A stretch of DNA of 64,000 nt. It comes from an uncultured Acidobacteriaceae bacterium. Its GTDB lineage: Bacteria; Acidobacteriota; Terriglobia; Terriglobales; Acidobacteriaceae. Position numbers and translations under genes: made by a program. The stretch lies in assembly GCA_963846795.1 (NCBI GenBank), contig CAWJXJ010000010.1, forward strand, positions 35,673 to 99,672. Reading direction: 5' to 3'. The notes under the pieces were generated by a model. It did no database searches, had not been told where the DNA came from, and saw nothing but the letters and a program-made list of their open reading frames with translations. Below, one piece after another: positions 7,884-26,536 of the stretch (position 1 is the stretch's first letter; the number at the start of each line of letters is the position of its first letter).

Positions 7884-8209
7884 CTCGAGCCTCCAGCCCC
7901 GCGTATCCTGACACCCTCAAGGCCCGGCGTCAGATCCTGAAGTTCGCAACCACATGGGTCAGCGTATCAGCGCGATCGCGAGTCGCCAATGCATGACAGT
8001 GGATGTGGCTACTCCTACGTTCTTCGAGATGGGCGCGCCAACTGCGTGAAAACATGCCCGACCGACAGACGCTCCACGCATCTTTCGCGGCGAGCGCTTC
8101 GTGCGAGCAACTAAAGCCAGGTGTCCGGCGAAGCCGCGCCGCCATTCGTTAATGCGAATCTCCCGTTGCGCTCAGCATTGCACGGACTGGGCGCGAGAGG
8201 TCATTGTAC

Positions 8210-8527
8210 CTAGACGCAGCCCGTAGGTTTGGGGAGGCCGGCCAGTTTGCAGGCGCCTTTAGCGGGGCCGGAGGGGAACAGGTCGTAGATCTGCTTGAGG
8301 GTGAAGCCGGTCTCCTTGCACACCTTGCGAACCATGGGCGCGATGCCGAACTGCAGGTAATAATTGCGAATGTAGTTGATCACTTTCCAGTGCGCGTCGG
8401 TCAGTTGGCTGATCGATTCTGTCTCCGCGAAGTCGGTCGCTACCTTCTCGCACCAGCTCTCCGGCTGCTGCAGGAATCCATCCTCATCCACGTCGTAGGT
8501 TGTTCCGTGTACTGCGAATGTCGGCAC
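8210..8527 (-). CDS. dsrC: DsrC (sulfite reductase gamma-like / TusE family) with both conserved C-terminal cysteines.
   Basis: 105 aa ending GACKLAGLPKPTGCV (Cys-x10-Cys-Val). Confidence 0.9.
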   Translation of the reverse strand: MPTFAVHGTTYDVDEDGFLQQPESWCEKVATDFAETESISQLTDAHWKVINYIRNYYLQFGIAPMVRKVCKETGFTLKQIYDLFPSGPAKGACKLAGLPKPTGCV

Positions 8528-8542
8528 AGTCTGACCTCCTGA

Positions 8543-10201
8543 TCAGTTCATTTCGATATAGCCGCAAGGACACGCCTCGGCGCACTTCTTGCAGCCGTTA
8601 CATAACTCCAGTTTCACCTTGTAGTGTTCGCCCTTGGGCAGGCGCACGAAGCAGCTATTGCTGCAGTACATCCAGCAGGTCTCGCAATCCATGCACATGC
8701 CGCAGGACATACAGCGCTTGGCCTCTTCCACCACGTCGGCTTCGGTCAAGCCCAGTTCCACTTCGGTGTCAGGCTCGCGCTCGGCCACTGCCACATGCTG
8801 CCGCTCGTGCCGCGGCGCCGCCTTGTACCACTCCGGATGCACCTTGTCTTTGCCCACCAGCACCGGCACCGCCGGCTTCTGCAGCGGAACCCCGCGCAAG
8901 CGGGCATCGATGGCCTCGGCAGCAAAGCGCCCCTGGGCAATGGCGATGGTCACCAGCCCCAGGTCGGTATCATCCCCGCCGGCATAGACGCCGTCGACCG
9001 GGGTCACCCCGTAGTCGCCGGTCTTGATCCAGTCTTTTCCCGAATGCAACTCGTCGAAGCCCGCAAACTCCGGCTCCTGGCTGATGGCGGCAATGATGGC
9101 CGTCACCGGCAGCTCAAACTCGCTGCCTTCGATCGCCACCGGCCGCCGCCGTCCTGAGGCATCCGGCTCGCCCAGCTTCATGCGCAGCGAGCGCAGCGCG
9201 ACAGCGCGTCCCTCCGCCTGCAGCACCTCGACCGGCGCCGCCAGGAACTCGATCTTCACACCCTCTTCAATCGCGCCTTCAATCTCGGAAGCCGCTGCCG
9301 GCATCTCCGCCCGCGTCCGGCGATAAAGCAGCGTCACATCGGCGCCCAGCCGGTGGCTTACCCGTGCGGCATCGATTGCCGTATCCCCGCCGCCGATCAC
9401 CATCACCTTCTCGCCGATCTCGACCTTCTCGCCGCGATTCACCAGGTTCAGAAACTCCGTCCCGCCGAAGACATTCGGCGCCTCTTCCCCCGGAATCCTC
9501 AGCCGCAAACTCTTCTGCGCCCCGATGCCGACAAACACCGCCTGGTACTGCTGGCGCAGCTCCGCCATGGTCAGCTCGCGCCCGATCATGCAATCGCACT
9601 TCAGCTCCACCCCCAAGTCCAGGATGCGTTGGATCTCCGCATCCAGTACCTCGCGCGGCAGCCGGTAGCGCGGTATGCCGTAGCGCAGCATCCCGCCGGG
9701 CTGGGGAAAGGCTTCAAACACCGTCACCGCATAGCCCCGCCGGGCCAGTTGATAGGCGCACGACAGGCCGGCCGGCCCCGCTCCCACCACCGCCACTTTC
9801 TCCGTATGGGTTCCGTTGCTCAGTTTCGAAAGCTTCAGACCCTGGCTGATGCCAAAGTCCCCGAGGAAGCGCTCGATGGCGTTCACCGCCACTCCGCCAT
9901 CCTTCGCCGTGCGGTTGCAGTTGTCCTCGCAGGGATGCGGACACACCCTCCCGCAGACCGCCGGGAACGGGTTACGTTCCGCCAGCCGCTGCCACACCTG
10001 CTCGAAGGCCTGCTGGTTCGTCTGCCCATAGGCTTCCGCCTGTGCGATGGTGGTCAGCAGCTCGCGTATCTCGTTGCCGTTGGGACAATGTCCGGCGCAA
10101 GGCGGCGACTTGGCGAGGTAGCGCGGACGCAGGGGGCTGATGTCCCCGCCCCCAGTCGCCGTCTTGATTACCGGCTTTTTAACCTCTTTGAACAGCCCCA
10201 T
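8543..10201 (-). CDS. dsrL: DsrL-like NAD(P)H:acceptor oxidoreductase (GltD-like flavoprotein with a C-terminal ferredoxin domain).
   Basis: 552 aa. N-terminal Cys clusters (CAGHCP, CGRVCPHPCEDNC), dinucleotide folds VAVVGAGPAGLSCA and VMVIGGGDTAIDAA, and a C-terminal CMSCGMCMDCETC...CNGCKKCAEACPC. Sits between dsrB and dsrC. Confidence 0.85.
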   Translation of the reverse strand: MGLFKEVKKPVIKTATGGGDISPLRPRYLAKSPPCAGHCPNGNEIRELLTTIAQAEAYGQTNQQAFEQVWQRLAERNPFPAVCGRVCPHPCEDNCNRTAKDGGVAVNAIERFLGDFGISQGLKLSKLSNGTHTEKVAVVGAGPAGLSCAYQLARRGYAVTVFEAFPQPGGMLRYGIPRYRLPREVLDAEIQRILDLGVELKCDCMIGRELTMAELRQQYQAVFVGIGAQKSLRLRIPGEEAPNVFGGTEFLNLVNRGEKVEIGEKVMVIGGGDTAIDAARVSHRLGADVTLLYRRTRAEMPAAASEIEGAIEEGVKIEFLAAPVEVLQAEGRAVALRSLRMKLGEPDASGRRRPVAIEGSEFELPVTAIIAAISQEPEFAGFDELHSGKDWIKTGDYGVTPVDGVYAGGDDTDLGLVTIAIAQGRFAAEAIDARLRGVPLQKPAVPVLVGKDKVHPEWYKAAPRHERQHVAVAEREPDTEVELGLTEADVVEEAKRCMSCGMCMDCETCWMYCSNSCFVRLPKGEHYKVKLELCNGCKKCAEACPCGYIEMN

Positions 10202-10211: not shown

Positions 10212-10676
10212 TCACGCGTACGGATACAGGTTGCGTTTGAAGTCTTCCAGCTGATTCAGCAGCCGGTCATGCTTCTGCTCGTCCTCGGTCAGGTAGGTCA
10301 GCAGGTGCCGCTGCACGAACAGCCGGCAACTCTTGCGCGCCTTCTCCGCCAGCTCCAGCGTTTCCTTCTCCGCCGCCGCGTGCTGTTCGATCAGGTCCCA
10401 CACCTCGCCCAGCTCTTCCGGGGTCAGGCTGAAGGCCTGCTTCTCCACACTGTCCAGAATCGCCTGCTGCACCCGCTTGTGCATGGCCGAGTCCTGGCGG
10501 ATGATCTCCATCACCAACTGGATCAGCGGATTGTGCGTCTTGCCGATGATGGCCGAGGTCTGCGCGATACTTTCCTGCTCGATCTCCTGCCAGCGCCGCA
10601 AGACGGTCTTCAGTTCGTCCAGGTTGCCGGCCGCCGGCTTCGCAACTGCTTGCTTCGTGATTGTCGACATGCTCAC
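10212..10676 (-). CDS. Uncharacterised all-helical 154-aa protein inside the dsr operon (possible ferritin-like / four-helix-bundle fold).
   Basis: Tightly packed between dsrB (12-nt gap) and dsrL (10-nt gap). Charged helical sequence with ExxH-type spacing (EDEQKH, SAMHKRV). I cannot assign a family. Confidence 0.7.
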   Translation of the reverse strand: MSMSTITKQAVAKPAAGNLDELKTVLRRWQEIEQESIAQTSAIIGKTHNPLIQLVMEIIRQDSAMHKRVQQAILDSVEKQAFSLTPEELGEVWDLIEQHAAAEKETLELAEKARKSCRLFVQRHLLTYLTEDEQKHDRLLNQLEDFKRNLYPYA

Positions 10677-11777: not shown

Positions 11778-12976
11778 TGCTCACCTCCCTGGACTTTCTG
11801 TTGGAAGTAGATATATGGGTTGTCACGCGGCGCCGACACCATCTCCGGCACCGGATCCAGGCCAATGCCATCCAGAAACGCCGGCATTCCGATGCGCTGA
11901 ATCATCTCCCCCACTCGTTCCCGGTTCTTGCCGTACTCGTCCCAGAACTCCCAGATCCGCCCCACCAGCTCCTTGATCGTCTCTTCCAGCTCCGCGGCGG
12001 GAACGAACGGGATCAGCACCGACGACAGCAGCGCCCCCTGCATGATCGGCGCCTTGGCCCCGATCAAAAGCACCGCTCCCCGCTCTTTGCCCGGCCGCAG
12101 CGCCTTGGGCATCACGTTGATGCAGTGCATGCAATGCACGCATTCATGGTTCTGAATGCTCACCTGCTTGCCGTCCCACTGGAAACTCTTGGCGGGACAC
12201 ATCTCGCAGATCTCCTTCTGGATGTCCATCCCCGCCGCCACATACTTGGCCACTTCCGCCTGGTCCACCTGCATCTCGTCCTTCCAGGTGCCAATCACCG
12301 ACAGGTCGGCGCGCGCCGCCGAAGCCACGCAGTCATTGGGGCAGCCCGCACACTTGATCTTGAACTTGTAGGCGAAGGCCGGCCGGTGCAGCTCGTCCTG
12401 ATAGTTCATGGTCAGGTCGTAGCACAGCTTCATGGTGTCGTAGCAGGCCCACTCGCAACGCGCCTGCCCCACGCAGCACGACGGGGTGCGCAGGTCGGAG
12501 CCCGAGCCCCCCAGGTCAAAGCCGGCCTGCGCCAGCTCCTGGAAGGTCGGCTCCAGTTGGTCGGTCGTGGTGCCCAGCAGAATGACGTCGCCGGTCGAGC
12601 CGTGCATGTTGGTCAAGCCCGAGCCGTGTTTCTCCCAGATGTCGCAGATGGTGCGCAGCGCCTCGCTGGTGTAGAACCAGCCCGCGGGATGGTTGATGCG
12701 CATGGTATGGAAGTGCGCGATGTTAGGAAACTGCTCGCCCAGGTCGCTGTAGCGGCCAATGACGCCGCCGCCGTAGCCCAGCACCCCCACCAGGCCGCCA
12801 TGTTTCCAATGGCCTTTCTTCTCCTGGTAGGAGAGTTCCAGTTGTCCCAACAGGTCCTTGGGAGCATCACTGGTCTGGCAGGCAGACTTGATCTCTTTTA
12901 CGAAACTGGGCCAGGGGCCCTTCTCCAGCTCGTCCAGCAGCGCCGTCTTGGGCTTGCCGTTGCCTTCTTCCGCCAT
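11774..12976 (-). CDS. dsrA: Dissimilatory sulfite reductase alpha subunit.
   Basis: 400 aa. [25 protein letters not shown] and [13 protein letters not shown] motifs. RBS AAGGAGA. Confidence 0.95.
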
Positions 12977-13325
12977 ATCTCACATTCTCCTTGGCTGGCT
13001 GGTGGCGCCGACGGTGGACTGGGGATTCGCCATGGCAGCCTGGCCATCGCAGCGCTTGCCGGCGGCTGATCGGCCATGCGGTGGGGCTGCGATGGACTCG
13101 CAAATCCACTATGCCTGAGCGGCGACGCACCCTACGGTGACGTCCGTCACTCTGTTGCGTGAGAGTTAGACGAACCCAGCATGACATGCTTAACTAACTA
13201 GAACTGACAATACCTACTTAGTCGAGTGTGTTAGTCGTGTTACTTATCTCACCCCCTGACCCGCTGCTTTCCCACCCCCCTACCCCTTCCCAATTATCTT
13301 CATAACTACTTCACACCCTACTCGC
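12440..13325. repeat. Copy 2 of the approximately 885-bp duplication.
   Basis: See copy 1 (1-885). Confidence 0.95.
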
Positions 13326-14114
13326 CGAAAGTAGGTTATCTTAACCAGTGGCCATAAATCGTCTGTATTATGCAGATGTCATCGCCAACTATAGTAATAC
13401 AGGCATAAAAACTGATGATTTGTATTGTCTCGTCAATATAGTCTCGTAGTTACTGTATAGCGTCGAATGGCCATAGAATCGCTGATATATCTTGACTGCT
13501 CGCTATCTAATCGTAAATAGCTGGCCCCATCCAGGCGATATATATGAATGCGACATTGCAGAAGTTACATTTTCGAAATAACTCTATCGAGATGGTAGAC
13601 AATCTATAGTTGCTGGTTCTGCTTGGATAATAGTTCTCTTCTCACGTATGAACGTGACCCCGGTCACCGCAATAGACATCTGCCACAGTGCATAGTCAAC
13701 TAGTTCGATGATTCAGGGCCGCAATTCTGCCCTGCGAACACAGCAAAACATGTTGCGCGACGAGAGTTGTCACGGCGGCGATGAGGATCGGGCTGAGCAG
13801 GTCCGGCGAGACCAGGCGAACAGTGTCCTCCTGGTTTCAACGGATGCACGCGACTGCTTGACCACAGCGTTGCCGGGCAGTTCCCAGCGATCACCGCCTG
13901 ACTGTCACTACTGACGATCACTCCAGATGGATTCCAGACTGCCACGGCAGTCGGCTATTTGCGAAGAAGATGCTTACGATTCACAGTTCGGTTCGGCTTC
14001 ATTCAATGGTTTACCCGAGCAATACCGCAGTTTCTTCGCAGGTGCAGTCCGTCGGGGCCACACATATACCCCTGTTCGAGGCCGCCGGCAAACGCGACGG
14101 CCGGGAGGTGCTTA

Positions 14115-14573
14115 GTGCCGAGTTACGTAATTCCTGATAAATGCGATGGGTGCAAGGCGTTGGACAAAACAGCCTGCCAACACATTTGCCCCAACGATCT
14201 GATGGTGCTCGACAAGGAAAAGATGAAGGCTTACAACCGCGATCCTATGATGTGCTGGGAGTGCTACAACTGCGTGAAGATTTGCCCCACCCAGGCAGTG
14301 CAGGTTCGTGGCTATGCCGACTTCGTTCCCTTGGGAGCATCCGCGGTTCCTCTCCGCTCCACCGACACCATCCTCTGGACTGTCACGTTCAGGGATGGCA
14401 CGCTGAAGCGTTTCAAATTCCCCATCCGTAGCACACCGGAAGGCACAGCGGTACCGAGTGGTGGTTTTGAGACCAAAGCGGATCTCAACAGCACCGCCCT
14501 CTACACCGAGCCGGCCTCACTGGGCTTGCCCGAGGTGGTTGGTTTAAGCAAAACCGGAGGTGCTCATGCCTAA
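14115..14573 (+). CDS. aprB: Adenylylsulfate (APS) reductase beta subunit.
   Basis: GTG start after GGGAGG. (M)PSYVIPDKCDGCKALDKTACQHICPNDLMVLD and CWECYNCVKICP. The long upstream extension of ORF 13959.. is not AprB-like. Confidence 0.9.
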   Translation: MPSYVIPDKCDGCKALDKTACQHICPNDLMVLDKEKMKAYNRDPMMCWECYNCVKICPTQAVQVRGYADFVPLGASAVPLRSTDTILWTVTFRDGTLKRFKFPIRSTPEGTAVPSGGFETKADLNSTALYTEPASLGLPEVVGLSKTGGAHA

Positions 14574-16509
14574 GTTCGAAACTGTTGTAGTAGAAACTGA
14601 TGTCTTGATTCTGGGCGGTGGCATGGCAGCCTGTGGCGCCGCTGTAGAGGCCGCTTATTGGGCCAAGCAGAACGGTCTGAAAGTGGTCTTGGTAGACAAA
14701 GCCGCAGTCGATCGCTCTGGAGCCGTGGCCATGGGTCTGTCGGCCATCAACCAGTACGTTGGGCTGAAGGATGGCACCAACACCCTGAAGGACTATGTTG
14801 ACTACGTCCGCAACGATCTCATGGGCGTCACCCGTGAGGACCTGGTAGCCAACATTGCCCGTCACGTGGACTCTTCCGTCCATCTCTTCGAGAAGTGGGG
14901 TCTGCCCATCTGGAAGGACAAGGACGGCAAGTACGTTCATGAAGGCCGTTGGCAGCTCATGATCAACGGCGAGTCCTATAAGGTGATCGTCGCCGAAGCG
15001 GCCAAGAACGCGTTCCGCGAAACAGGTGTAGGAGAGATTTACGAACGCGTGTTCATCGTTGGTCCGCTGCTGGATGGGGACCGCTGCGCCGGCGCGGTGG
15101 GCTTCTCTATCCGCGAGAACAAGCTGTTCATCTTCCGGGCGAAAGCAACCCTGGATGCAATGGGCGGCGCGGTCCACGTATTCAAACCCCGGAGCAGTGG
15201 CGAAGGTATGGGCCGCGCGTGGTATCCACCGTGGAATTCCGGCTCCTCCGCCTACTTCACTCTCAAGGCCGGGGCGGAAATGACCTGCCAGGAAGTGCGG
15301 TTCATCCCGGTGCGTTTCAAGGATGCCTACGGACCGGTGGGTGCATGGTTCCTTCTGTTCAAGTCGCGTGCCACCAACGCCATGGGCGGCAATTACATGG
15401 TGGAGCGCGCAGCAGAATTGGAGAAGTGGGGACCTTACGGGCGGGTAAAGCCGGTTCCGGCCAACCTGCGCAACTATCTTGGAATGCTCGACGTGCTGGA
15501 TGGAAAAGGGCCGATTTCAATGCGTACGGAAGAAGCCCTGACCAAGATCGCCGATCAGTACAAGGACGACCCCAAGGCCTACCAGAAAAAGATGAAGGAG
15601 TTGGAGTCGGAAGCCTGGGAAGACTTCCTCGACATGACGATTTCGCAAGCTATTCTGTGGGCCGCAACCAATGTGCGACCGGAACAGAAGAGCTCCGAGA
15701 TCGCCGCTGCCGAGCCTTACTTCATTGGCTCCCACTCCGGTGCCTCCGGCGCCTGGGTCAGCGGTCCCGAAGACCTGCAAACCGGTGAAACCAAGTCGCA
15801 ATACTTCTGGGGATATCCCTGCATGTCAACCGTGAAAGGGTTGTTCTGCGCAGGGGATGCTTCCGGCGCATCGAGCCACAAGTTCTCCTCCGGCTCGCAT
15901 GCGGAAGGTCGTATCGCTGCCAAGGCTGCGGTAAAGTACGTGGTCGATAACAACACCCTACCCAAGCTGGATCAGGCTGCCATCGACAAGCTGGCCGCCG
16001 AAATCCTGCAGCCGATGGAGACGTTCGAGAAGAATAAGAACGCCACCACCGACGAAGATGTCAATCCCAACTACATCAAACCGCGCTCGTTCATGTTCCG
16101 TTTGCAGAAGATCATGGACGAATACGCCGGTGGGGTGACTGCCCAGTTCATGACCAACAAGCCCCAGTTAGAGCGGGCCCTCGAACTACTGGCCTTTCTG
16201 AAGGAAGACTCGGATAAGCTGGCCGCTTCGAACCTGCACGAACTGATGCGCTGCTGGGAGAACGTGCACCGTATGTGGCAGGCGGAAGCGCACGTCCGCA
16301 CGGTGCTGTTCCGTGAGGAGACGCGTTGGCCGGGCTACTACTTCCGTTCGGATACACCCAAGCTGGATGAAGACAAGTGGCACGTCTTCGCCAACTGCCG
16401 GTGCGATCCCGCCACTGGAAAGTGGGAGATGCTGACTCGTCCCATTCTCCACGTGTTCGAGACAGTAAAAACCAAAGAGCCGGAGCCGGTAGCGGCAGCG
16501 GCCCGTTAA
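14566..16509 (+). CDS. aprA: Adenylylsulfate (APS) reductase alpha subunit.
   Basis: MPKFETVVVETDVLILGGGMAACGAAVEAA (FAD fold). About 647 aa. 8-nt overlap with aprB. RBS GGAGG. Confidence 0.95.
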   Translation: MPKFETVVVETDVLILGGGMAACGAAVEAAYWAKQNGLKVVLVDKAAVDRSGAVAMGLSAINQYVGLKDGTNTLKDYVDYVRNDLMGVTREDLVANIARHVDSSVHLFEKWGLPIWKDKDGKYVHEGRWQLMINGESYKVIVAEAAKNAFRETGVGEIYERVFIVGPLLDGDRCAGAVGFSIRENKLFIFRAKATLDAMGGAVHVFKPRSSGEGMGRAWYPPWNSGSSAYFTLKAGAEMTCQEVRFIPVRFKDAYGPVGAWFLLFKSRATNAMGGNYMVERAAELEKWGPYGRVKPVPANLRNYLGMLDVLDGKGPISMRTEEALTKIADQYKDDPKAYQKKMKELESEAWEDFLDMTISQAILWAATNVRPEQKSSEIAAAEPYFIGSHSGASGAWVSGPEDLQTGETKSQYFWGYPCMSTVKGLFCAGDASGASSHKFSSGSHAEGRIAAKAAVKYVVDNNTLPKLDQAAIDKLAAEILQPMETFEKNKNATTDEDVNPNYIKPRSFMFRLQKIMDEYAGGVTAQFMTNKPQLERALELLAFLKEDSDKLAASNLHELMRCWENVHRMWQAEAHVRTVLFREETRWPGYYFRSDTPKLDEDKWHVFANCRCDPATGKWEMLTRPILHVFETVKTKEPEPVAAAAR

Positions 16510-16515
16510 CAGGTC

Positions 16516-16544
16516 GCGAGGTCCCGCGATAACCGGGACCTCGC
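16516..16544 (+). terminator. Strong intercistronic hairpin just after the aprA stop (attenuator or mRNA-stabiliser candidate).
   Basis: GCGAGGTCCCG-CGATAAC-CGGGACCTCGC, an 11-bp perfect stem. No U-tract. Confidence 0.45.
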
Positions 16545-16566
16545 ACCCTCATACAAAGGTTGGCCC

Positions 16567-16854
16567 ATGGCCGAGGAATCACAAAAAGTTTGTCCCCATT
16601 GCCACCGACCATTGGTGCGCTGGAAGAATCCCCCGCTGGCCTCTTGGGACGGCGAATACCAGTATGTGTGCTTCAACGATGACTGCGCCTATTTTGTGGG
16701 CGGCTGGGTATGGATGAAGGACCGTTTCAATGTGAATGCTTCCTATCGCTATCGCCTGGAGCCGAACACCGGGGACAGTGGTCCGCTGCCCGTGTGGTCG
16801 CGCGACGCGATGAAGAGCAATATTTTGCCGGACGAGGATGGACGAGATGTCTGA
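16567..16854 (+). CDS. Small Cys-rich (zinc-ribbon-like) protein of unknown function.
   Basis: 95 aa with CPHC...VCFNDDC. Lies between aprA and qmoA and overlaps the next gene. Confidence 0.6.
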
Positions 16855-17680
16855 AAACCAGGTAACACCCGAGCAGATTCTGCAGGAAAGCCCGCGCCTG
16901 AAGCTGGACAGTTGCTTCAACTTCGCCTGCGGACCCGATAAAGACTGTTTCAATTCCTGCTGCCACGACGTGGCAATTCTGCTTTCACCCTACGACGTGC
17001 TGCGGCTTAAGCATGCACTTAAGATGAACTCTTCCGAGTTTCTTGAGAAGTACACGCTCACCACCGCCTCTCACGACAAGCGTGTTCCCGCCGTCCTGCT
17101 CAAGATGGACGAGCAGAGCCTGAAGTGTCCTTTGGTGAGCCAGCAAGGTTGCACCGTCTATGCCAACCGCCCGTGGGCCTGCCGCATGTATCCGCTGGGG
17201 ATGGCTGAGCCCAAAGGTCCACAAGGCGCGGAGCAACGTTTTTATTTCATGGTCGAAGAAAAGCTCTGTCACGGACACGGCACGGGCAAGGAGTGCTCGG
17301 TGCGGGAGTGGATCGAGAACCAGGACATTGAGCCTTTCGACGAAATGCAGACTCCGTTTTTGGAATTCATGTCGCATCCGGGATGGGAGAAGCCGGAGGA
17401 GTTGAGCGCCGATTGTATGGCGATGTACTTCATGGCGCTGTACGACCTGGACCGCTTCCGCCGTTTTGTGTTCGACACCCGCTTCCTGGAACTGTTCGAA
17501 GTGGACGAGGCGCGCCTTCAGGCCCTGGCCGATGATGACGCAGAGTTGCTGGAGTTCGCCATCGACTGGCTGTCGTTCAGTCTGTTTCATGAGAAGCGGA
17601 TGAGGCTGAGAAAGCCCATCGCGTCCGCACCGTTGGCCACCTGCGGCGCAAGCCAAGCTAGCGCGAGTTCACCGGCCTAG
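16838..17680 (+). CDS. YkgJ/UPF0153-like putative Fe-S or Zn-chelating protein (CxxCxxCC family).
   Basis: [17 protein letters not shown] and [23 protein letters not shown]. An alternative start exists at 16847. Confidence 0.7.
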
Positions 17681-17686
17681 AGGATT

Positions 17687-18961
17687 ATGGCAAGCATTGA
17701 TTCAACAAATGGCAGGGGCGGCACCATTCTGGTGGTGGGCGGCGGCATCGCCGGCATCACCACTGCCCTGGAAGCGGCCGAGGCCGGCTGTGACGTGGTG
17801 CTGATAGAGAAGTCGGCGACCCTGGGAGGGCGAGTCGCAGGCTTTAATCAATATTTCCCGAAACTATGTCCTCCCTCCTGCGGCCTCGAAATCAATTTCA
17901 AACGTCTGAATGCCAACCCGAGGGTGACGGTCCTCACCTTGGCGGAATTGGAAAGTCTTAGCGGCTCCCCGGGCAGCTATGAAGCCGTTGTGCGGATTGC
18001 GCCACGCTACGTCACCCAGGACTGCACTCTCTGCGGTGAATGTTCTGCGGTGTGTCCGGTAGAGGTTCGCGACGAGTTCAACTACGGCCTGACCAGCGTC
18101 AAGGCGGCACGGCTGCCACGACGCACAGCTTATCCCGCACAGTATGTTATCGACCGGGCGGCTTGTCCCGCCGACTGCCATGCCTGCGTGGATGCCTGCA
18201 AGTACCGGGCGATTGATCTGGAGCAACCGCCGGTTAAGAAGACGTTCAAGGTCGCATCCGTCGTAATGGCTACCGGATGGACGCCCTACGACGCCACCAG
18301 GATCGAGAACCTGGGCTTTGGCAAGTGCGCCAATGTTCTGACGAACGTCCTTTTCGAGCGGATGGCTGCCGCCGACGGGCCCAGCCAGGGAAAAATTCTC
18401 CGGCCTTCAGACGGCAAAGCGCCGAAGGCGGTTGCGTTTGTACAATGTGCCGGCTCGCGGGATGAGAATCACCTCCCCTACTGCTCGTCCGTCTGCTGCA
18501 CCGCCTCCCTGAAACACGCCACCTATGTTCGCAGCCAATACCCGGAAGCGAAGATCACGATGTTCTACATCGACCTGCGCGCTCCCGGACATTTGCAGGA
18601 GTTTGCCGCAAAGATCGTCGCTGCTAACAACATCGAGCTGATTAAAGGGAAGGTGGGAACGGTGAGGGAACATCCGGGCAGCCGCGATGTTTTGCTAGTT
18701 GCCGAGGACGTGCTCGGGGGACGAAAGATCATGCGGGAATTTGATCTGGTGGTGCTAGCTACCGGAATGGTTCCGCAAAACAAAGGAATAGCCTCGCAAG
18801 TGCAGCTCGATCAATTCGGCTTTGTGATAGACGGCGAACTTGGCATCTACGCCGCCGGTTGCGCCAAACGGCCGGCGGAGGTCTCGGCGTCGGTACGCGA
18901 CGCCACGGGCGCAGCGTTGCAAGCTTGGCAGATGGCCACGGGAGCGGTTCGTCATGGATAA
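17687..18961 (+). CDS. qmoA: Quinone-interacting membrane-bound oxidoreductase subunit A (HdrA-like flavoprotein).
   Basis: ILVVGGGIAGITTALEAAEAG, plus CGLEINFKR and CAGSRDENHLPYCSSVCC. Confidence 0.9.
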   Translation: MASIDSTNGRGGTILVVGGGIAGITTALEAAEAGCDVVLIEKSATLGGRVAGFNQYFPKLCPPSCGLEINFKRLNANPRVTVLTLAELESLSGSPGSYEAVVRIAPRYVTQDCTLCGECSAVCPVEVRDEFNYGLTSVKAARLPRRTAYPAQYVIDRAACPADCHACVDACKYRAIDLEQPPVKKTFKVASVVMATGWTPYDATRIENLGFGKCANVLTNVLFERMAAADGPSQGKILRPSDGKAPKAVAFVQCAGSRDENHLPYCSSVCCTASLKHATYVRSQYPEAKITMFYIDLRAPGHLQEFAAKIVAANNIELIKGKVGTVREHPGSRDVLLVAEDVLGGRKIMREFDLVVLATGMVPQNKGIASQVQLDQFGFVIDGELGIYAAGCAKRPAEVSASVRDATGAALQAWQMATGAVRHG

Positions 18962-21206
18962 GCGACTGGGCGTATATGTTTGCAGCGGCTGCTCCATCGG
19001 CGAATCGGTGGATGTCGATCAGCTCTCGAAGGTCGCTACCAGCGAATATCAGGCGCCGGTCTGCCGGACTCACCCCTTCCTATGTGGCGAAGAGGGCCTG
19101 AAGCTGATCCACGACGATCTGCAACAGGGCAACGTCAATGCCATCGTTGTGGCCGCTTGCTCCCCTCGGGTGAAGACCCGGCAGTTTGCTTTCAACTCCG
19201 GCTCGGTGATGGACCGCGTCAATCTGCGCGAGCAGGTGGCGTGGTGTCATGAAGCCCGGCACGAAGATACCCAGATGCTGGCCGAAGATCTGCTGCGCAT
19301 GGGTATCGTACGCGCGCAGAAGATGGAGCCCTTGGAGCCGCTGGCCGAAGAGATTTCGCGAGACATCCTCATCGTGGGCGGCGGAGTCACAGGCATTACC
19401 GCCGCGTTAGAAGCTGCCGATGCGGGTTTCGACGTTATCCTGGTCGAGACGCAGGCCGAACTGGGCGGCATGGCGCGTTCGATGAAGCGGGATATTCCCT
19501 CCCCCCCTTCTTACACCGAAGCCCAGCCTAACCGTCTGGCCGAGCAGATCAACGCTGTAACTTCGCATCCCCGGATCAAGCTGTATTGCTCGTCGAAAAT
19601 CGTCAAGACAGAGGGGCAGCCGGGACGATTTGACATCACGCTGGAGACCAACGGAGAGGTCACAACCCACCGCGCCGGCTCCATTCTGCTGGCTACCGGC
19701 TGGAAGCCCTACGATGCAACCAAGCTCACTGCGCTTGGCTACGGGTTGACGGATGTTGTCACCAACCTCGAGTTCGAGACTATGGCAGCCGAAGGCCTGA
19801 TCCACCAGCCCTCAACCGGCGAACCGGTGGACAGCGTCTTGTTTGTTCAGTGTGCGGGCTCGCGCGATCCCGATCATCTCCCCTATTGCTCTTCGACCTG
19901 CTGTGTAAACACCCTCAAGCAGACCGAGTACATGCGCGAGCAGAACCCTGAGGCACAGGTCTTCATTGTCTACAAGGACATGATGACCCCCGGAGCTTAC
20001 GAGAAGTACTACCAGAAGCTTCAGCAAGAGCCGCTCAACTTCTTTGTAAAGGGAGTTGTGACTGAAGTTGAACGATGCTCCGACGGAAGGGTCATGGTCG
20101 GGGTGGATCAAACTTTGTTGGGCGTACCGATGCAGATTCCGGTCGACCTGGTGGTGCTGGCTACCGGGATGGCGCCGAACTCAGCCGACGGACCTGCCAT
20201 CCGCACCTTGCATGATGCCGAGGCCAAAGCGCTCAGGAACGAATCCGACACCCAACGCCAGGAAGCGGAGAAGGTGGTCGAGCAGTACAAGCAGCACGCG
20301 GGCACGGAAATCCTGAACCTCACCTATCGCCAGGGCCCTGACCTGCCGGTGTTGCAGGATGGTTTTCCTGATTCGCACTTCGTCTGCTTCCCCTACGAGA
20401 CATTGCGTACCGGCATTTATGCTGCCGGCGCGGTGCGCGCGCCAATGGACTCAACCCTGGCCCGGGAAGACGCCCGCGGCGCGGTGATGAAATCCATTCA
20501 GTGTATACAGATGGCCACGCATGGCGAGGCGGTGCATCCGCGCGCCGGCGACCTCTCATATCCCAGCTTCTTCCTGCAGCGCTGCACCTCGTGCAAGCGG
20601 TGCACCGAGGAGTGTCCGTTTGGCTCCATCGATGAAGACGAGAAAGGCACGCCCAAGTTCAATCCTTACCGCTGCCGTCGTTGCGGTATCTGCATGGGGG
20701 CTTGCCCGGAACGCATTATCTCCTTCAAGAACTACTCGGTCGACATGATCGCCAGCATGGTGAAGGCGATTGAGGTGCCGGACGAAACCGAAGACAAGCC
20801 GCGCATTTTGATCTTTGCTTGCGAAAACGACGCCTATCCGGCGCTGGATATCGCCGGCATGAACCGGGCTTCCTACGACGCCAGCGTGCGTGTCATCCCT
20901 CTGCGCTGCCTGGGGTCGATGAACATTGTCTGGATCGCCGATGCGTTGTCGCGCGGCATTGACGGCGTGCTGCTGCTGGGGTGCAAGTTCGGCGAGGACT
21001 ACCAGTGCCACTTCGTGCATGGCAGCGAGCTGGCCAGCCGTCGGCTGGAAAACGTTAAAGACACATTGACCCGACTGCAGTTGGAGTCCGATCGCGTGCG
21101 GCTGGTACAGGTTCCGATGGACGGGGCGGCACAGTTGCCGAGCATCATCGACGAATTTGCCGAGAAAATTCGCGAACTAGGACCCAATCCTTACAAGGGC
21201 TTTTGA
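18954..21206 (+). CDS. qmoB: Qmo subunit B (HdrA-like flavoprotein with ferredoxin and MvhD-like domains).
   Basis: Start at MDKRLGVYVCSGCSIG (ATGGATAA overlap with qmoA). ILIVGGGVTGITAALEAADAG. Ferredoxin motifs CTSCKRCTEECP and CRRCGICMGACP. Confidence 0.9.
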   Translation: MDKRLGVYVCSGCSIGESVDVDQLSKVATSEYQAPVCRTHPFLCGEEGLKLIHDDLQQGNVNAIVVAACSPRVKTRQFAFNSGSVMDRVNLREQVAWCHEARHEDTQMLAEDLLRMGIVRAQKMEPLEPLAEEISRDILIVGGGVTGITAALEAADAGFDVILVETQAELGGMARSMKRDIPSPPSYTEAQPNRLAEQINAVTSHPRIKLYCSSKIVKTEGQPGRFDITLETNGEVTTHRAGSILLATGWKPYDATKLTALGYGLTDVVTNLEFETMAAEGLIHQPSTGEPVDSVLFVQCAGSRDPDHLPYCSSTCCVNTLKQTEYMREQNPEAQVFIVYKDMMTPGAYEKYYQKLQQEPLNFFVKGVVTEVERCSDGRVMVGVDQTLLGVPMQIPVDLVVLATGMAPNSADGPAIRTLHDAEAKALRNESDTQRQEAEKVVEQYKQHAGTEILNLTYRQGPDLPVLQDGFPDSHFVCFPYETLRTGIYAAGAVRAPMDSTLAREDARGAVMKSIQCIQMATHGEAVHPRAGDLSYPSFFLQRCTSCKRCTEECPFGSIDEDEKGTPKFNPYRCRRCGICMGACPERIISFKNYSVDMIASMVKAIEVPDETEDKPRILIFACENDAYPALDIAGMNRASYDASVRVIPLRCLGSMNIVWIADALSRGIDGVLLLGCKFGEDYQCHFVHGSELASRRLENVKDTLTRLQLESDRVRLVQVPMDGAAQLPSIIDEFAEKIRELGPNPYKGF

Positions 21207-21209
21207 TTT

Positions 21210-22391
21210 ATGGCAGAGAAGCTTGTACTGCAACCAGACGCGAGGTTTATCCAGGAGGCGATTGCCAACGGCGGCGAGTTCAAGCAGTGCATGCAGTGCG
21301 CCACCTGCAGCTCAACCTGCTCGCTCTCGACGGAAGAGAACCCGTTTCCCCGCCGCCCCATGCTGCTGGCGCAGTTGGGCATGGAGCGCGAGCTGCTTCA
21401 GGATCCCTCGCCCTGGCTCTGCTTCTATTGCGGCGATTGCTCCAAGTCGTGCCCTCGTCAGGCCAATCCCGCCGAGAGCATGATGGCGCTCCGCCGCTAC
21501 CTCACCACCCGCTACGATTGGACCGGCGTGTCGCGTTTCATGTACCGGTCGGCCTGGGCCGAACTGGGAGTGCTGGCCCTGGTGGCGGCTTTTATGGTGG
21601 CGCTGTTTACGCTCCCCCAGAGCTTTGGCTTTGGCCTGCTGGCCCGCTCCACCCCGGAAGCGCGCAATGTCGTTATGCTCGACAAGTTCGCGCCGACCAT
21701 GGTGGTACATCACGGCGATGCAATTCTGGCGTCCTTGTTAAGCTTCTTCCTGCTTACTAACGCAGCGCGCATGTTTATTTTCCTGACGCGAGGTAAAAGG
21801 GCGCCTTTGCGCGTCTACCTAGCGCAGCTTCCGGAATTTTTGATTCAGGCTGTGACCCAGATTCGCTGGAAGCAGTGCGAAGACAAAAATGCGATCACCA
21901 ACTGGGTGCGTCATCTGTTTCTTGTAACCGGCTACGGCACGATTTTCACATTGGTAGTTATCTTCCTACCCTGGTTCCAGGTAGAAGACAGTAGTTTCCA
22001 TTGGACCAGCCTGCTTGGTTACTACTCCACCGTCGTCCTCATTGCCGCAACCCTCTGGATTCTCATCGACCGGATGGGCAAGCGCACGGAGATGCATCGC
22101 TTCAGCCATCTTTCCGATTGGCTATTTCCTATTCTGTTGTTCCTTACCGCGGTTACCGGAATCGCAGTGAACATCCTGCGGCTGGAGAATCTGGCCATGC
22201 CCACGTACATCCTGTACACGGTACACATGGCAATCGCGGTGCCAATGCTGATTGTGGAGGTGCCTTTCGGTAAATGGGCCCACCTTCTGTACCGGCCGAT
22301 TGCAATTTATGTGGCGGCGGTGAACAGAAAGGAGTTCGCAGCGTCAGGGCAGCAAGCCGCCATGGCAGCCCAAGCCGTCGATCCGGCGTAG
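21210..22391 (+). CDS. qmoC: Qmo subunit C (HdrC-like Fe-S domain fused to an HdrE/NarI-like membrane domain).
   Basis: CMQCATCSSTC and CFYCGDCSKSCP, followed by multiple hydrophobic helices. Confidence 0.9.
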   Translation: MAEKLVLQPDARFIQEAIANGGEFKQCMQCATCSSTCSLSTEENPFPRRPMLLAQLGMERELLQDPSPWLCFYCGDCSKSCPRQANPAESMMALRRYLTTRYDWTGVSRFMYRSAWAELGVLALVAAFMVALFTLPQSFGFGLLARSTPEARNVVMLDKFAPTMVVHHGDAILASLLSFFLLTNAARMFIFLTRGKRAPLRVYLAQLPEFLIQAVTQIRWKQCEDKNAITNWVRHLFLVTGYGTIFTLVVIFLPWFQVEDSSFHWTSLLGYYSTVVLIAATLWILIDRMGKRTEMHRFSHLSDWLFPILLFLTAVTGIAVNILRLENLAMPTYILYTVHMAIAVPMLIVEVPFGKWAHLLYRPIAIYVAAVNRKEFAASGQQAAMAAQAVDPA

Positions 22392-22517
22392 TGGGCTCGG
22401 TAGCGGCTTCAAATTGAATTGAGTGAAATGCGCAAGTTGGACTTATCGATTTCTGATACGGGAGTAGATAGCAGAATTCAAACTTAACTTCATTGCGAGT
22501 AGTCAAGGAGACATACA

Positions 22518-23783
22518 ATGGCGACGCTAGTTCCGCCCCATGGCAGTCCGGAGCTGAAGGTTCTCCTGCTTGATGGCAAAGCCAAGGCAGAAGAAATAAA
22601 GAAAGCAAATACTCTTAAAAAAATACCTCTCACCAGCCGGGAAACCGGCGACCTGATCATGATGGGCATCGGGGCCTTCACCCCGCTCGATGGCTTCATG
22701 GGCAAGGACGACTGGAAGGGCTGCTGTGACGAGTACAAGCTGCCCAGCAGGAACAACCTGTTCTGGCCGATTCCGATTACGCTCTCCGCCGACGAGGATC
22801 TTGCGAAGTCGATTGCTATCGGCGAGGAAGTGGCCCTCTGGGATGTCGAAACCGACTCGCTTGTGGGCACCATGCAGGTGAACGAGAAGTACACCATCGA
22901 CAAGGAGCACGAGTGCAAGCAGGTCTTCCGCACCACCGACCCGAAGCACCCAGGCGTGCAGAAGGTAATGGAGCAGGCGGCGGTGAACCTTGCCGGTCCG
23001 GTGAAGGTAGTCTCGGAGTCGTATTTCCCCGAGGATTTTCCAGAGATCTATCAGCGGCCGGCCGACGCGCGCAAGCGGTTCGCGGAGCGCGGCTGGACGA
23101 CTGTCGCTGCACTACAGTTGCGCAACCCGATGCACAACTCGCATGCTTATCTGGCATGGATTGCCATCGAAGTCTGCGACGGCGTTTACGTGCATCAATT
23201 GCTGGGCAAACTGAAGCCTGGCGACATCCCGGCCGACGTTCGCGTGAAGGCGATTGATGCGCTGGTAAACAAGTACTTCCGCAAGGAACGCGTGATCCAG
23301 GGTGGCTATCCCATGGAAATGCGGTATGCCGGTCCGCGCGAAGCCCTGTTGCACGCGTTGTTCCGCCAGAACTATGGATGCTCGCACCTCATCGTGGGCC
23401 GCGATCATGCCGGAGTAGGCGACTACTACGGGCCATTCGATGCTCAGAAGATCTTTGCCGAGATACCGGCAGGAGCCATGGCGATCCAGCCGCTGTGCAT
23501 GGACTGGACGTTCTACTGCTACGAGTGCGGCAGCATGGCCTCGATGAAGACCTGCCCACATGAGAGCAAGGCTGTGATCGATGACAGCGGCAACTACAAA
23601 GGCGGGGCTCGCCTACTGTTGTCGGGTACTCTGTTACGCAAGCTGATGAGCGAGGGCAAGCCGGTTCCGGCGGAATTCTCCAAGCCTGAGGTCATCGCCG
23701 TCCTGAAACAGTACTACGACACGCTCGAAGAAAAGGTCGAAGTTGAGCTCCACGGAGCAGCGACCGGAGCGGTCAAGAAATAA
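22518..23783 (+). CDS. sat: Sulfate adenylyltransferase (ATP sulfurylase).
   Basis: 421 aa with the [12 protein letters not shown] and GRDHAGVG motifs. Confidence 0.95.
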
Positions 23784-23893
23784 CCCTGTCGCTGGCACCC
23801 CTTTTTTACCGGGTTGCGAGTGGCAGTGAACTTCAGATGCAGCCTGTACCGGTGACTCTGGCGCAGGCCGCATCTGCTGGTGGAGAGAACGCC

Positions 23894-24703
23894 ATGGCTG
23901 TGATTACGATTTCCAGAGGATCGTTCAGCGGCGGCAAAATTCTGGCGGAATGTCTCGCAAAACAACTCGGTTACCGCTGCATCGACCGCGAGGTTATCGT
24001 CGCGAAAGCGGCAGCTTACGGCGCCTCGGAGCAGGAAATCAACGAGGCCCTGGAGAAGTCGCCGACCTTTCTTGATCGTTTCAACCACAAGCGCTACCTG
24101 TATCTGGCATTGGTACAGGCGGCCCTGACCGAAGAAGTGCGCGACGGACGGGCAGTCTATCACGGGCTGGCGGGACATCTGCTGCTGAAGGGCGGACGAC
24201 CCATTTTGCGCACCCGGATCATTGCACCAATGGAGATGCGCATTGAGATGATCCGCAAGCGGCTCAAGTACGACCGCAATGAAGCCATCGCTTGTATCGA
24301 GAAGGTCGACCAGCAACGAAAACGATGGACCCAATTCCTCTACGGCGTGGACTGGGGCGATCCGTCGCTCTATGACATCGTCATCAATTTGGAATACATC
24401 GATGTGGAACAAGCCTGCCGGATCATCTGTTCAGTTGTCAGCGACCGGCGTTTTGAGTTTACGCCGGAATGCCGGCAACAGATGGATGATTTGGCATTAG
24501 CCAGCCGTGTGCGCGCGGACCTGGCGATTAACCGGGAAACCTTCGGACTGGAATTCGAAGTGTCCGCCGATTGCGGTGTGGTTACGATTCGGGGGAAGGT
24601 TTCCGAACTTTACCAGATGGAGAAGATCCAGCGCGTAGTTTCAGAAGTGCCGGGGGTTAAGCAGCTTAATCTCGATCATCTGGCGCTGCCGGTGCGTGCT
24701 TGA
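23894..24703 (+). CDS. Cytidylate-kinase-like family protein with a C-terminal BON-like domain (paralog 1).
   Basis: MAVITISRGSFSGGKILAECLAKQLGY...; YDIVINLEYI; C-terminal VVTIRGKVSELYQMEKIQRVVSEVPGVKQLNLD. Confidence 0.7.
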   Translation: MAVITISRGSFSGGKILAECLAKQLGYRCIDREVIVAKAAAYGASEQEINEALEKSPTFLDRFNHKRYLYLALVQAALTEEVRDGRAVYHGLAGHLLLKGGRPILRTRIIAPMEMRIEMIRKRLKYDRNEAIACIEKVDQQRKRWTQFLYGVDWGDPSLYDIVINLEYIDVEQACRIICSVVSDRRFEFTPECRQQMDDLALASRVRADLAINRETFGLEFEVSADCGVVTIRGKVSELYQMEKIQRVVSEVPGVKQLNLDHLALPVRA

Positions 24704-24743
24704 CTGTCAGGGAAATGTCTTAGCCGGATAAAGGGTAGAGGCA

Positions 24744-25658
24744 ATGCATATATTTCTTCCAGTTGCAGGGATCAGCATCAATTTGCTCTTGCTCGTTGCA
24801 GTGGGCGCGGTGGTGGGTGTACTCACCGGTCTACTCGGAGTGGGCGGCGGTTTTCTGCTTACGCCAGTGTTGATGATGATTGGAGTGCCCCCTACAGTTG
24901 CTGCCGCATCCAGCACAAATTCGCTGGTGGCTACATCCTCCTCGGGCGTCGCGGCCCATTTTCGACTGGGGAATGTCGACTTAAAGCTGGGCAGCATAAT
25001 GCTGTTGGGAGGACTCGCCGGGGCAGAGGTAGGAGTCCAATTCATCAAATTTTTGCGCAGCACCGGAAATGCAGACTTCGTGATCACCGTCACCTATGTT
25101 GTGGTGCTGGGATCAGTTGGCAGCTTGATGTTCATTGAGAGCTTGTATAGCATGCATCGCGGCGTTATGGTCGCGGGCGGTTCCCGGAAAACGGAACGTA
25201 ACGGTCTGTTGCAACGGCTCCCCTTTCAAATGGATTTTCCCCGTTCCAACGTTCAGCATTCGGTTCTGGTGCCGTTCCTTTTGTGTTCGCTGGTGGCAAT
25301 TTTGGCGGCCATTATGGGAGTAGGTGGTGGTTTTATTATGGTGCCGATGATGGTCTATCTGCTGCGGATGTCAATGCACGTAGCCATAGGCACGGATCTT
25401 TTCCAGATCCTGTTTACCTGCGCCGGACTTACCCTCATGCAAGCGGTGAGTAACCAAACCGTCGACGTGGTGATTGCTCTGCTGTTGGCCGGCGGATCGA
25501 CTATAGGTGCACAGATCGGTGCAAGGCTCGCCCGGGTGCTGCGCGGAGATCAGCTCAAAATTGTGCTCGCCACCCTGGTTTTGCTGGTCACCGTCAAGAT
25601 GGGCTACAGCCTGATGGTCACGCCTTCAAACTTGCTGTCCTATGCTGGAGGGCAGTGA
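24744..25658 (+). CDS. TauE/SafE (TSUP) family anion/sulfite exporter-like permease.
   Basis: Two half-repeats carry GVGGGFLLTPVLM and GVGGGFIMVPMMVY. Polytopic membrane protein. Confidence 0.85.
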   Translation: MHIFLPVAGISINLLLLVAVGAVVGVLTGLLGVGGGFLLTPVLMMIGVPPTVAAASSTNSLVATSSSGVAAHFRLGNVDLKLGSIMLLGGLAGAEVGVQFIKFLRSTGNADFVITVTYVVVLGSVGSLMFIESLYSMHRGVMVAGGSRKTERNGLLQRLPFQMDFPRSNVQHSVLVPFLLCSLVAILAAIMGVGGGFIMVPMMVYLLRMSMHVAIGTDLFQILFTCAGLTLMQAVSNQTVDVVIALLLAGGSTIGAQIGARLARVLRGDQLKIVLATLVLLVTVKMGYSLMVTPSNLLSYAGGQ

Positions 25659-25703
25659 CATGGCAAGGCTTTATGCCTGCAAAGGTCTTAAAGAGAGGTA
25701 AAG

Positions 25704-26525
25704 ATGGCATTGCTGCTGATCTCACGAGGATCGTTTTCCGGCTGCCAGTTGATGAGCCAATGCCTGTCGAAATCGACTGGAATTCGGTGCCTAACCCGCG
25801 AGGATCTGATCGCGGCAGTGAATACCCATGGCGAACTGGCCAACAAAGTCCTAGCCAGTATGGCGAAGGCCGCCCACGATTACGGTCAGTTGAGCGCACT
25901 GCGCCGCCCCTACAAGATCCTGATGCAAAGGGCGCTTCTGGGATATGCGCGAGAGGGCGACATTGCCTACTTCGGTTACTCCGGACACCTGCTGCTGTCT
26001 GGGATTGCTCATGCGATCCGGGCGCGCGTCATCATGCCGGTGCAGCAGCGAGTCGAGCTGTTGAGGAAGAGCGAAGGGGTAACGGAGGCGGAGGCCCGCG
26101 AACGCATTTACCGGGAAGACGAGGAGCGCAGCCGCTGGACCCGCTTCATGTATGGCAAGAACCTAAGTGATCCTGCCCTGTTCGATACCTGTATCAACCT
26201 GAAACATATCTCCTACGGCACCGCCTGCTGCATCCTGCAAGGTCTGATGCAGCAACATGAGTTCCAGCCTACGCCCGAATCGTTGACCGCGATCGAAAAC
26301 AGCTATCTCTCCGCTTGCGTTTTAGCAGCGCTGGTTAGTAATCCCCAAACCGCCGAGCTTGCGATGGGAGCAACCGCCGAAGACGGCTGCGTAACACTCG
26401 AGGGTCCATATCTGCCTGAGGCAGAGCGCGCCGTGGTCCTCGACCTCGCCCATGCCGTTCCGGATATCGTGCAGGTGCGATACACCGAAGGGTACGCTCC
26501 GCCGTTTGACTTGGCTGCTTCATAA
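25704..26525 (+). CDS. Cytidylate-kinase-like family protein with a C-terminal BON-like region (paralog 2).
   Basis: MALLLISRGSFSGCQLMSQCLSKSTGI... Same architecture as 23894..24703 (RSRWTRFMYGKNLSDPALFDTCINL). Confidence 0.7.
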   Translation: MALLLISRGSFSGCQLMSQCLSKSTGIRCLTREDLIAAVNTHGELANKVLASMAKAAHDYGQLSALRRPYKILMQRALLGYAREGDIAYFGYSGHLLLSGIAHAIRARVIMPVQQRVELLRKSEGVTEAEARERIYREDEERSRWTRFMYGKNLSDPALFDTCINLKHISYGTACCILQGLMQQHEFQPTPESLTAIENSYLSACVLAALVSNPQTAELAMGATAEDGCVTLEGPYLPEAERAVVLDLAHAVPDIVQVRYTEGYAPPFDLAAS

Positions 26526-26536
26526 GGAGAACGGAA

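Follow-up and report, generated by a model that had tools for sequence, protein, structure and literature searches.

What is the function of two genes for cysteine-rich proteins that stand between aprA and qmoA in a sulfur locus of an uncultured Acidobacteriaceae bacterium, and to which of their neighbors do they belong? Together, adenosine phosphosulfate (APS) reductase and Qmo form the step with which the reductive part of dissimilatory sulfate reduction begins and with which reverse sulfur oxidation ends, and both the electron supply of the reductase (AprBA) and the conservation of energy at this step are still debated. The locus lies in a stretch of 64,000 nucleotides (contig CAWJXJ010000010.1, positions 35,673 to 99,672 of the forward strand), hereafter the window. 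It shares its core genes and their order with the canonical (sat-)aprBA-qmoABC operons of Desulfovibrio and green sulfur bacteria, but differs from these in possessing the two additional genes: one coding for an acidic zinc-ribbon protein that we term ZnR, and the other for a protein of the YkgJ/PF03692 type. An earlier sequence-only reading of the window had taken the two products for accessory redox or assembly partners of the AprBA-Qmo electron-transfer module. We find that the fixed neighbor of the pair is aprA and not qmoA, and that the pair is co-transcribed with both aprA and qmoA in two relatives. An accessory role for the pair in the APS-reduction step is very likely, and we consider it probable that the two proteins form a cytoplasmic metal module functioning with AprBA.

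The placement of the pair was followed by comparative synteny. With the YkgJ-type protein as query, and with each GTDB species represented by a single genome, a scan recovered at least 581 genomes with a relative; the locus counts given here refer to the best 80 of these, which have YkgJ-type proteins of 49-86% identity and belong almost all to Acidobacteriota, including the metagenome-assembled genomes (MAGs) SbA3 and CO124. The closest locus, from an uncultured Acidobacteriaceae MAG, shows 86-95% protein identity. The order aprB-aprA-ZnR-YkgJ is retained in 80 of the 80 loci, while qmoA is found 3' of the pair in 79, the exception (L040) having dsrAB after the pair and qmoBA upstream. Absence of the pair from the apr-qmo loci of relatives, which the sequence-only reading had named as the outcome that would speak against it, is clearly not what the comparison returned. 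Beyond Acidobacteriota the picture is more varied with respect to qmo. In one other lineage (L084) the order is aprBA-ZnR-YkgJ-qmoABC, and in L082 it is qmoB-sat-aprBA-PPase-ZnR-YkgJ-qmoC. A Bacteroidota-like contig (L086) and the 2.85-Mb Zixibacteria contig CP070796.1 (L093) both display qmoC on the minus strand, then sat-aprBA-ZnR-YkgJ, and then unrelated genes; a Phycisphaerae-labelled MAG (L094) has qmoCAB-sat-aprBA-ZnR-YkgJ. Whether qmo lies elsewhere or upstream, the pair thus keeps its place behind aprBA, which ties it to AprBA and not to Qmo. The notion of a module of the Apr-Qmo junction is not supported by this comparison, in which the last three loci end their sat-aprBA operon with the pair.

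The elements of the locus in the window are as follows:

14115..14573, + strand: aprB, APS reductase beta subunit, with 8 Cys for two [4Fe-4S] clusters
14560..16509, + strand: aprA, APS reductase alpha (FAD) subunit, with the Pfam domains FAD_binding_2 and Succ_DH_flav_C
16516..16544, + strand: GC-rich hairpin, 7 nt past the aprA stop, without a U tract
16567..16854, + strand: gene for ZnR, a 95-aa acidic zinc-ribbon protein (PF04606)
16847..17680, + strand: gene for the YkgJ/PF03692-type protein, 277 aa, pI 5.0, with a Cys-rich N-domain and a helical C-domain
17687..18961, + strand: qmoA
18954..21206, + strand: qmoB
21210..22391, + strand: qmoC
22518..23783, + strand: sat (ATP sulfurylase)

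Divergent from these and upstream of aprB are dsrAB, a gene for a 154-aa protein and dsrL. Pfam matches and the comparison of loci agree with the earlier assignment of the flanking genes to aprBA and qmoABC: AprA is 70-95% identical to the AprA proteins of related loci, and the aprB ortholog in L001 is annotated with PF12139 (APS-reductase_C). The aprB gene starts with GTG, served by a GGGAGG Shine-Dalgarno sequence. Both additional open reading frames were recovered on the + strand at the coordinates first reported. For the YkgJ-type gene, homologs and database gene calls place the start at the second ATG, 16847 (MSENQ..., 277 aa), with a GAGGA Shine-Dalgarno sequence about 11 nt 5' of it. 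The protein is consequently of the YkgJ/PF03692 type with the motifs originally quoted, but with a length of 277 rather than 280 aa; the upstream ATG at 16838, which would give 280 aa and a 17-nt overlap, was rejected, as homologs and gene calls use 16847. The overlap of stop and start codons that had been read from the window is real: the ZnR and YkgJ-type genes share 8 nt, ATGTCTGA, and in 72 of the 80 related loci the two genes overlap, 46 of these having an 8-nt and 20 an 11-nt overlap. The ATG of qmoA at 17687 lies 6 nt past the YkgJ-type stop, which is overlapped by a GAGGA sequence. A scan of 12900-24000 against Rfam gave no match. That the two frames are far beyond chance follows from their hundreds to thousands of homologs, from dN/dS values of 0.06-0.19 for both genes, indicative of purifying selection, and from the arrangement kept in all 80 loci.

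The window sequence itself was sought in RNA runs and was absent from them, being matched in soil and wetland DNA metagenomes only; expression was hence read from the two relatives SbA3 (L067) and CO124 (L062). In peat metatranscriptomes, mismatch-free RNA contigs of SbA3 (7505-8615 and 7505-8696) unite the 3' end of aprA with the ZnR and YkgJ-type genes, and another (8586-8952) runs from the YkgJ-type gene into qmoA. In bioreactor metatranscriptomes, the RNA contigs of CO124 run from aprA into the ZnR gene (6731-7942) and from the YkgJ-type gene into qmoA (7987-8872). Co-expression with apr-qmo, one of the checks proposed for the earlier reading, is thereby supported at the transcript level in these two relatives. 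Contig depth, a poor measure of expression, is about 35-100 for aprBA, about 7-16 for the pair and 0-10 for qmoABC in both relatives, and this gradient, with the pair at or above qmo, is unlike contaminating DNA. The hairpin at 16516-16544 has a perfect stem, with a folding energy of -37.1 kcal/mol for 81 nt (z = -3.6), and of 66 relatives whose aprA-ZnR spacer was folded, most have a similar hairpin there with other stem sequences. Given this recurrence and the drop in RNA depth past aprA, it is probably a 3' stabilizer, an attenuator or a partial terminator that sets the AprBA mRNA above that of the downstream genes. As a separate observation, the RNA contigs of SbA3 from all four metatranscriptomes end loose at one point inside aprA (about 7503-7505 in L067), where the gene is annotated as two (SBA3_840014-13); there is probably a local misassembly at this spot in the published contig.

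Both ZnR and the YkgJ-type protein evolve at about the rate of QmoA. The partnership was further assessed by mirror-tree analysis in 41 taxa, using partial correlations of pairwise distances that control for the other four proteins, with significance from Mantel permutation. The YkgJ-type protein correlates with AprA (partial r 0.45, p 0.001), with AprB (0.26, p 0.001) and less so with QmoA (0.18, p 0.03), and not significantly with QmoB (0.05); the positive control QmoA-QmoB gives 0.71 (p 0.001), and AprA-AprB gives 0.15 (p 0.032). This is soft evidence, which agrees with synteny in that the YkgJ-type protein tracks AprA and AprB over Qmo.

ZnR conforms to its initial description as a zinc-ribbon-like protein with the motifs CPHC and CFNDDC. 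Its four cysteines (C9, C12, C35 and C40) have the spacing CX2CX22CX4C of a C4 zinc ribbon, and its match to the Pfam Ogr_Delta zinc finger PF04606 is marginal, at 28.1 bits where the cut-off is 26.3; beyond this, a Pfam search at E <= 5 returned three weak matches only (E 0.06-0.26), with no Qmo, AprM or Hdr family among them. The second half of the protein is strongly conserved and aromatic-rich, with an invariant GPLPVWS motif, and the AlphaFold2 (AF2) model is compact (pLDDT 82). With the Ogr/Delta activators of P2-like phages ZnR shares the passing of the Pfam threshold and the cysteine spacing, which we take to be that of phage P2 Ogr. It differs from them in being acidic (pI 5.2) rather than basic, in its extra conserved C-terminal half and in being encoded in a respiratory operon, always beside a YkgJ-type gene, and not in a prophage. 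These properties do not fit a basic phage late-gene activator.

The YkgJ-type protein matches the Pfam CxxCxxCC family PF03692 over residues 33-118 (37.5 bits, cut-off 23). Eight cysteines are invariant among 24 acidobacterial sequences and in a 10-sequence alignment that includes the proteins of L082, L084, L086 and L092: C28-X5-C34-X3-C38-C39, C94, C102, C112 and C141. The N-terminal motif is accordingly CX5CX3CC, as against CX2CX2CC in the family. The protein is acidic, like ZnR, and its helical C-domain bears the motifs YDLDRFRxFVF and DDxELLEF; the AF2 model has a pLDDT of 77 and a pTM of 0.71. PF03692 was its sole Pfam match at E <= 5, with no Qmo, AprM or Hdr family and no ferredoxin-type or CCG-type cluster motif. 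For both proteins, searches of the PDB by sequence and by fold found no relative, comparison with viral predicted structures gave no significant match, no NCBIfam model matched at E <= 0.01, and Pfam and NCBIfam returned no membrane-protein match (no transmembrane or signal-peptide prediction was made).

The apr-linked proteins belong to a wider family. A phmmer search with the YkgJ-type protein against 1.84 billion representatives gave 1,671 matches, 143 of these below 1e-30, and its relatives fall into at least 4,728 clusters; these numbers, like that of the at least 581 genomes, are upper bounds for the apr-linked clade, as the lower half of the family tree is not uniformly apr-linked. In that half, the contexts of P0238 and P0283 are not apr loci, and neither ZnR nor QmoA is seen in L088. 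The 250-residue architecture is common to the paralogs (hhalign probability 100%, 248 columns), and the core motifs shared with non-apr paralogs accord with a chemistry common to the family better than with a wire specific to Apr. A standalone clade around P0239 (L095-L174) comprises 80 metagenome loci without ZnR and without apr, 41 of which have a convergent pyruvate:ferredoxin oxidoreductase gene directly downstream, an adjacency that is probably lineage synteny. One paralog adjoins DtxR/FeoAB and NikR/CbiMQO genes. In L090 and L091, a separate radical-SAM (S-adenosylmethionine) gene is directly upstream of a YkgJ-like paralog, and the metagenomic 690-aa protein P0329 joins an N-terminal part with the Pfam Radical_SAM domain and a CX3CX2C motif to a complete YkgJ-like part at the C-terminus (39.7 bits with PF03692).

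The partnership of the two proteins also recurs away from apr. In L183 (6001-7582) and L184 (2711-4292), beside a TetR/RND efflux locus, a YkgJ-like paralog is followed by a 229-aa protein whose N-terminal 95 residues are homologous to ZnR (hhalign 99.4%, E 4.5e-21), followed by a region of HEAT-type repeats, as judged by eye, and a C-terminal zinc ribbon. The existence of such a partnership outside apr loci argues that the pair is a working unit that was recruited to aprBA. Three other candidates for informative contexts were discarded: the 377-aa P0424, seemingly a ZnR-YkgJ fusion, is read-through junk; the 509-aa P0220, seemingly a natural fusion, is a frameshifted YkgJ-QmoA call; and a tie of the wider family to dsrC, suggested by one paralog adjoining that gene, falls away as the arrangement is kept in 1 of 81 related loci.

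Two relatives have been characterized, and the first of these offers a parallel in gene context: fliB adjoins the gene of the protein substrate of FliB. FliB is the SAM-dependent flagellin lysine N-methyltransferase of Salmonella, which has a CX4CX3CC motif, 8 conserved cysteines and one oxygen-sensitive [4Fe-4S] cluster (PMC8598068). The window protein resembles it in the PF03692 domain, in a cysteine motif that ends in CC (CX5CX3CC) and in the eight conserved cysteines; FliB differs in being longer, membrane-associated and oligomeric, and in having no ZnR partner. With the likeness confined to the Cys-rich domain and no NCBIfam match, the two do not qualify as orthologs. DpdM is a phage dPreQ1 N-methyltransferase, validated in vivo, that its authors assigned by HHpred to a DUF3109/YkgJ-like type and that has a CxxxCxxCC motif, four more cysteines and two predicted four-cysteine metal sites, one using three cysteines of the motif and a distal one, the other using the remaining motif cysteine and three central ones (PMC10516641). 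Its cysteines 42, 92, 102, 112 and 150 (phiSM) correspond in nearly equal linear spacing to 39, 94, 102, 112 and 141 in the window protein, and it differs in that its substrate is DNA. We located the DpdM of VH7D by its Cys pattern at KC131129 41694-42608; it scores 16.4 bits with PF03692, below the cut-off, and an hmmsearch with the YkgJ-type family profile against all VH7D open reading frames gave no match. Based on the cysteine layout and on the HHpred assignment by the DpdM authors, the kinship is best taken as a lead.

Taken together, these features suggest the following scheme. Coupled translation of the apr-qmo transcript would yield ZnR and the YkgJ-type protein, which would form a soluble cytoplasmic heterodimer dedicated to AprBA and not to Qmo. 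The YkgJ-type subunit would carry an oxygen-sensitive [4Fe-4S] cluster, which we infer to sit on the CX5CX3C(C) motif together with C141, and could bind a second metal via C39, C94, C102 and C112, an arrangement put forward for DpdM and shown in part for FliB. It would modify or mature AprA or AprB, most simply in the manner of an N-methyltransferase, and ZnR might serve as the adaptor that docks it on the target. A catalytic role of this FliB/DpdM-like kind, with ZnR as docking adaptor, is a tentative proposal, to which we give somewhat less than an even chance. It is favored because both characterized relatives, FliB and DpdM, are N-methyltransferases, because the family core is common to paralogs in non-respiratory contexts, because Apr-Qmo operates in green sulfur bacteria, which lack the pair (PMC6338057), and because the mRNA of the pair is clearly below that of aprBA.

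Several points weigh against this scheme. The likeness to FliB and DpdM is confined to the Cys-rich domain, with no NCBIfam model at E <= 0.01; hhalign of the YkgJ-type family against the VH7D DpdM gives a probability of 0.2%, which is not significant; and the YkgJ-type protein has no nameable SAM-binding motif. We know of no biochemical datum for any apr-linked member, nor of AprA or AprB in methylated form in these lineages. Contact need not be behind the mirror-tree signal, which could also have arisen if apr and the pair were transferred horizontally together, and the control pair AprA-AprB reaches just 0.15. The RNA evidence consists of assembler contigs from relatives, not from the organism of the window, with depth as a poor guide to expression. 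Finally, the position between aprA and qmoA and the presumed Fe-S nature of the protein suit an electron relay equally well.

Such a relay, the main rival to our scheme, would make the pair an electron-transfer adaptor, or the "third partner" of Qmo-AprBA that Ramos et al. 2012 put forward. With ZnR holding it in place, the YkgJ-type protein, as a putative Fe-S protein, would pass electrons between QmoA/B and AprB or, in a variant, would let in a second donor of low potential and so make possible confurcation of the kind postulated for Qmo-AprAB. The eight invariant cysteines suffice for one or two clusters, the YkgJ-type gene lies between aprA and qmoA in 79 of the 80 acidobacterial-type loci and is tightly coupled to qmoA, the RNA contig depth of the pair is at or above that of qmo, and the correlation with QmoA, if small, is detectable. 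Nevertheless, we regard this relay as rather unlikely. The pair keeps to aprBA where qmo is unlinked or upstream; green sulfur bacteria, with sat-aprBA-qmoABC and without the two genes (PMC6338057), indicate that the Apr-Qmo step in general is independent of the pair; full-length paralogs populate unrelated, non-respiratory contexts; FliB and DpdM are enzymes rather than ferredoxin-like carriers; and no ferredoxin-type or CCG-type cluster motif is present. A more specific form, in which the pair is a new soluble Fe-S/Zn redox module on AprBA, unlike HdrB/C, that gates electrons from Qmo or admits a low-potential donor, is unlikely. Some accessory role, as in the earlier reading, is very likely in view of conservation, coupling and co-transcription, with the amendment that the partner is aprBA; sequence cannot separate redox from assembly.

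Two further explanations place the pair outside catalysis and electron transfer. It could be a generic factor of metal or Fe-S handling, such as a cluster or zinc chaperone, or a hitchhiker in a transferred sat-apr-qmo-dsr island, in keeping with the paralogs next to the DtxR/FeoAB and NikR/CbiMQO metal-homeostasis genes and with the laterally mobile appearance of the whole sulfur island across phyla. This is quite improbable, as a mere passenger would be lost or displaced, whereas the place behind aprA outlasts the rearrangement of all other genes of the island across several phyla, under purifying selection as strong as that on QmoA. A regulatory pair, with ZnR as an Ogr/Delta-like transcription factor and the Fe-S protein as a sensor of redox state or O2 tuning apr-qmo in facultatively aerobic sulfate reducers, would draw on the Ogr_Delta match above threshold and on the cysteine spacing that we presume to be that of P2 Ogr. 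It would be in line with the oxygen sensitivity of the FliB cluster (PMC8598068) and with the switching of CO124, a carrier of the pair, between O2 respiration and sulfate reduction (PMC10564751). Against this, the acidic ZnR lacks the basic surface expected of a DNA binder and has a conserved C-terminal domain lacking in Ogr; the genes are inside a structural operon, translationally coupled, with an RNA contig depth at or above that of qmo; and a gene for an Rrf2-type regulator is nearby, at 31216-31767. We consider the regulatory explanation highly improbable.

The two genes have been encountered before as "conserved hypothetical" genes in two papers. Thiel 2019 described sat-aprBA-hyp-hyp-qmoC in Ca. 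Thermonerobacter thiotrophicus (PMC6338057), and Figure 2 of Hausmann 2018 displays syntenic unknown genes in the apr loci of SbA2 and SbA3 (PMC6018796), whose locus tags put two genes between aprA and qmoA in SbA3 and three in SbA2. The SbA3 locus is our L067, with ZnR-YkgJ between aprA and qmoA; the papers merely drew or mentioned the genes, without family, distribution, expression or function, and our literature search found no paper linking YkgJ or PF03692 to apr. In several Terriglobia MAGs (L011 and L016-L020), an extra gene is seen between aprA and the ZnR gene (about 6250-7605 in L016), coding for a 451-aa protein that is citrate-synthase-like by eye, and in L082 and L083 a gene for an H+-pyrophosphatase occupies this gap (5925-7992). 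A third gene in the gap probably explains the three genes of SbA2. What is new here is that aprBA and not qmo is recognized as the fixed partner, that co-transcription is seen in two independent data sets, that ZnR-like and YkgJ-like proteins also pair away from apr, that DpdM offers a parallel and that the apr-linked clade is given bounds.

The pair is found behind aprA in many uncultured lineages: Acidobacteriota, Zixibacteria, Ignavibacteria-like, Phycisphaerae-like and other MAGs. A conserved, co-transcribed pair in this place implies that the textbook Apr-Qmo module is incomplete for a large and environmentally dominant diversity of sulfur-cycling organisms in peat, soils and sediments. 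AprM and QmoAB-HdrBC offer a precedent for lineage-specific partner modules of AprBA, and comparison of the pair with AprM, HdrB/C and the Qmo subunits in Pfam and the PDB detected no homology. Should the YkgJ-type protein prove to be a FliB/DpdM-like Fe-S methyltransferase, a dissimilatory sulfur enzyme would for the first time be seen to have a post-translational modifier dedicated to it, and an almost unexplored enzyme superfamily would gain a third substrate class. A redox subunit would bear directly on the "third partner" and on the question of confurcation; as a module on AprBA, it would allow facultatively aerobic sulfate reducers with DsrL to reduce APS reversibly or with conservation of energy. 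Whichever reading holds, the pair can serve as an inexpensive additional marker of such apr loci in genomes.

Other genes of the island are also of note. The region 3' of sat in the window (23837-29930) codes for a Cytidylate_kin2+BON protein, TauE, a second Cytidylate_kin2 protein, a DUF202 protein and an 862-aa protein with PPDK_N/PEP-utilizers domains; the Cytidylate_kin2, TauE and PPDK-like genes recur by the apr loci of other phyla (L082-L087), and the PPDK-like enzyme could in principle recycle the adenosine monophosphate (AMP) and pyrophosphate (PPi) from Apr and Sat. Between dsrB and dsrL, at 10212-10676 on the - strand, the window has a gene for a 154-aa helical protein with no match in Pfam or NCBIfam, whose homologs (60-81% identity) are beside dsrB or dsrL in many related loci. 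The third of these observations concerns the membrane subunit of Qmo: across L002-L081 the identity of QmoC to that of the window is bimodal, at about 60-70% or about 27-34%, in otherwise syntenic acidobacterial loci, and in L066, L069 and L072 qmoB is not followed by qmoC. Such a pattern suggests that the membrane subunit was replaced within a fixed operon frame.

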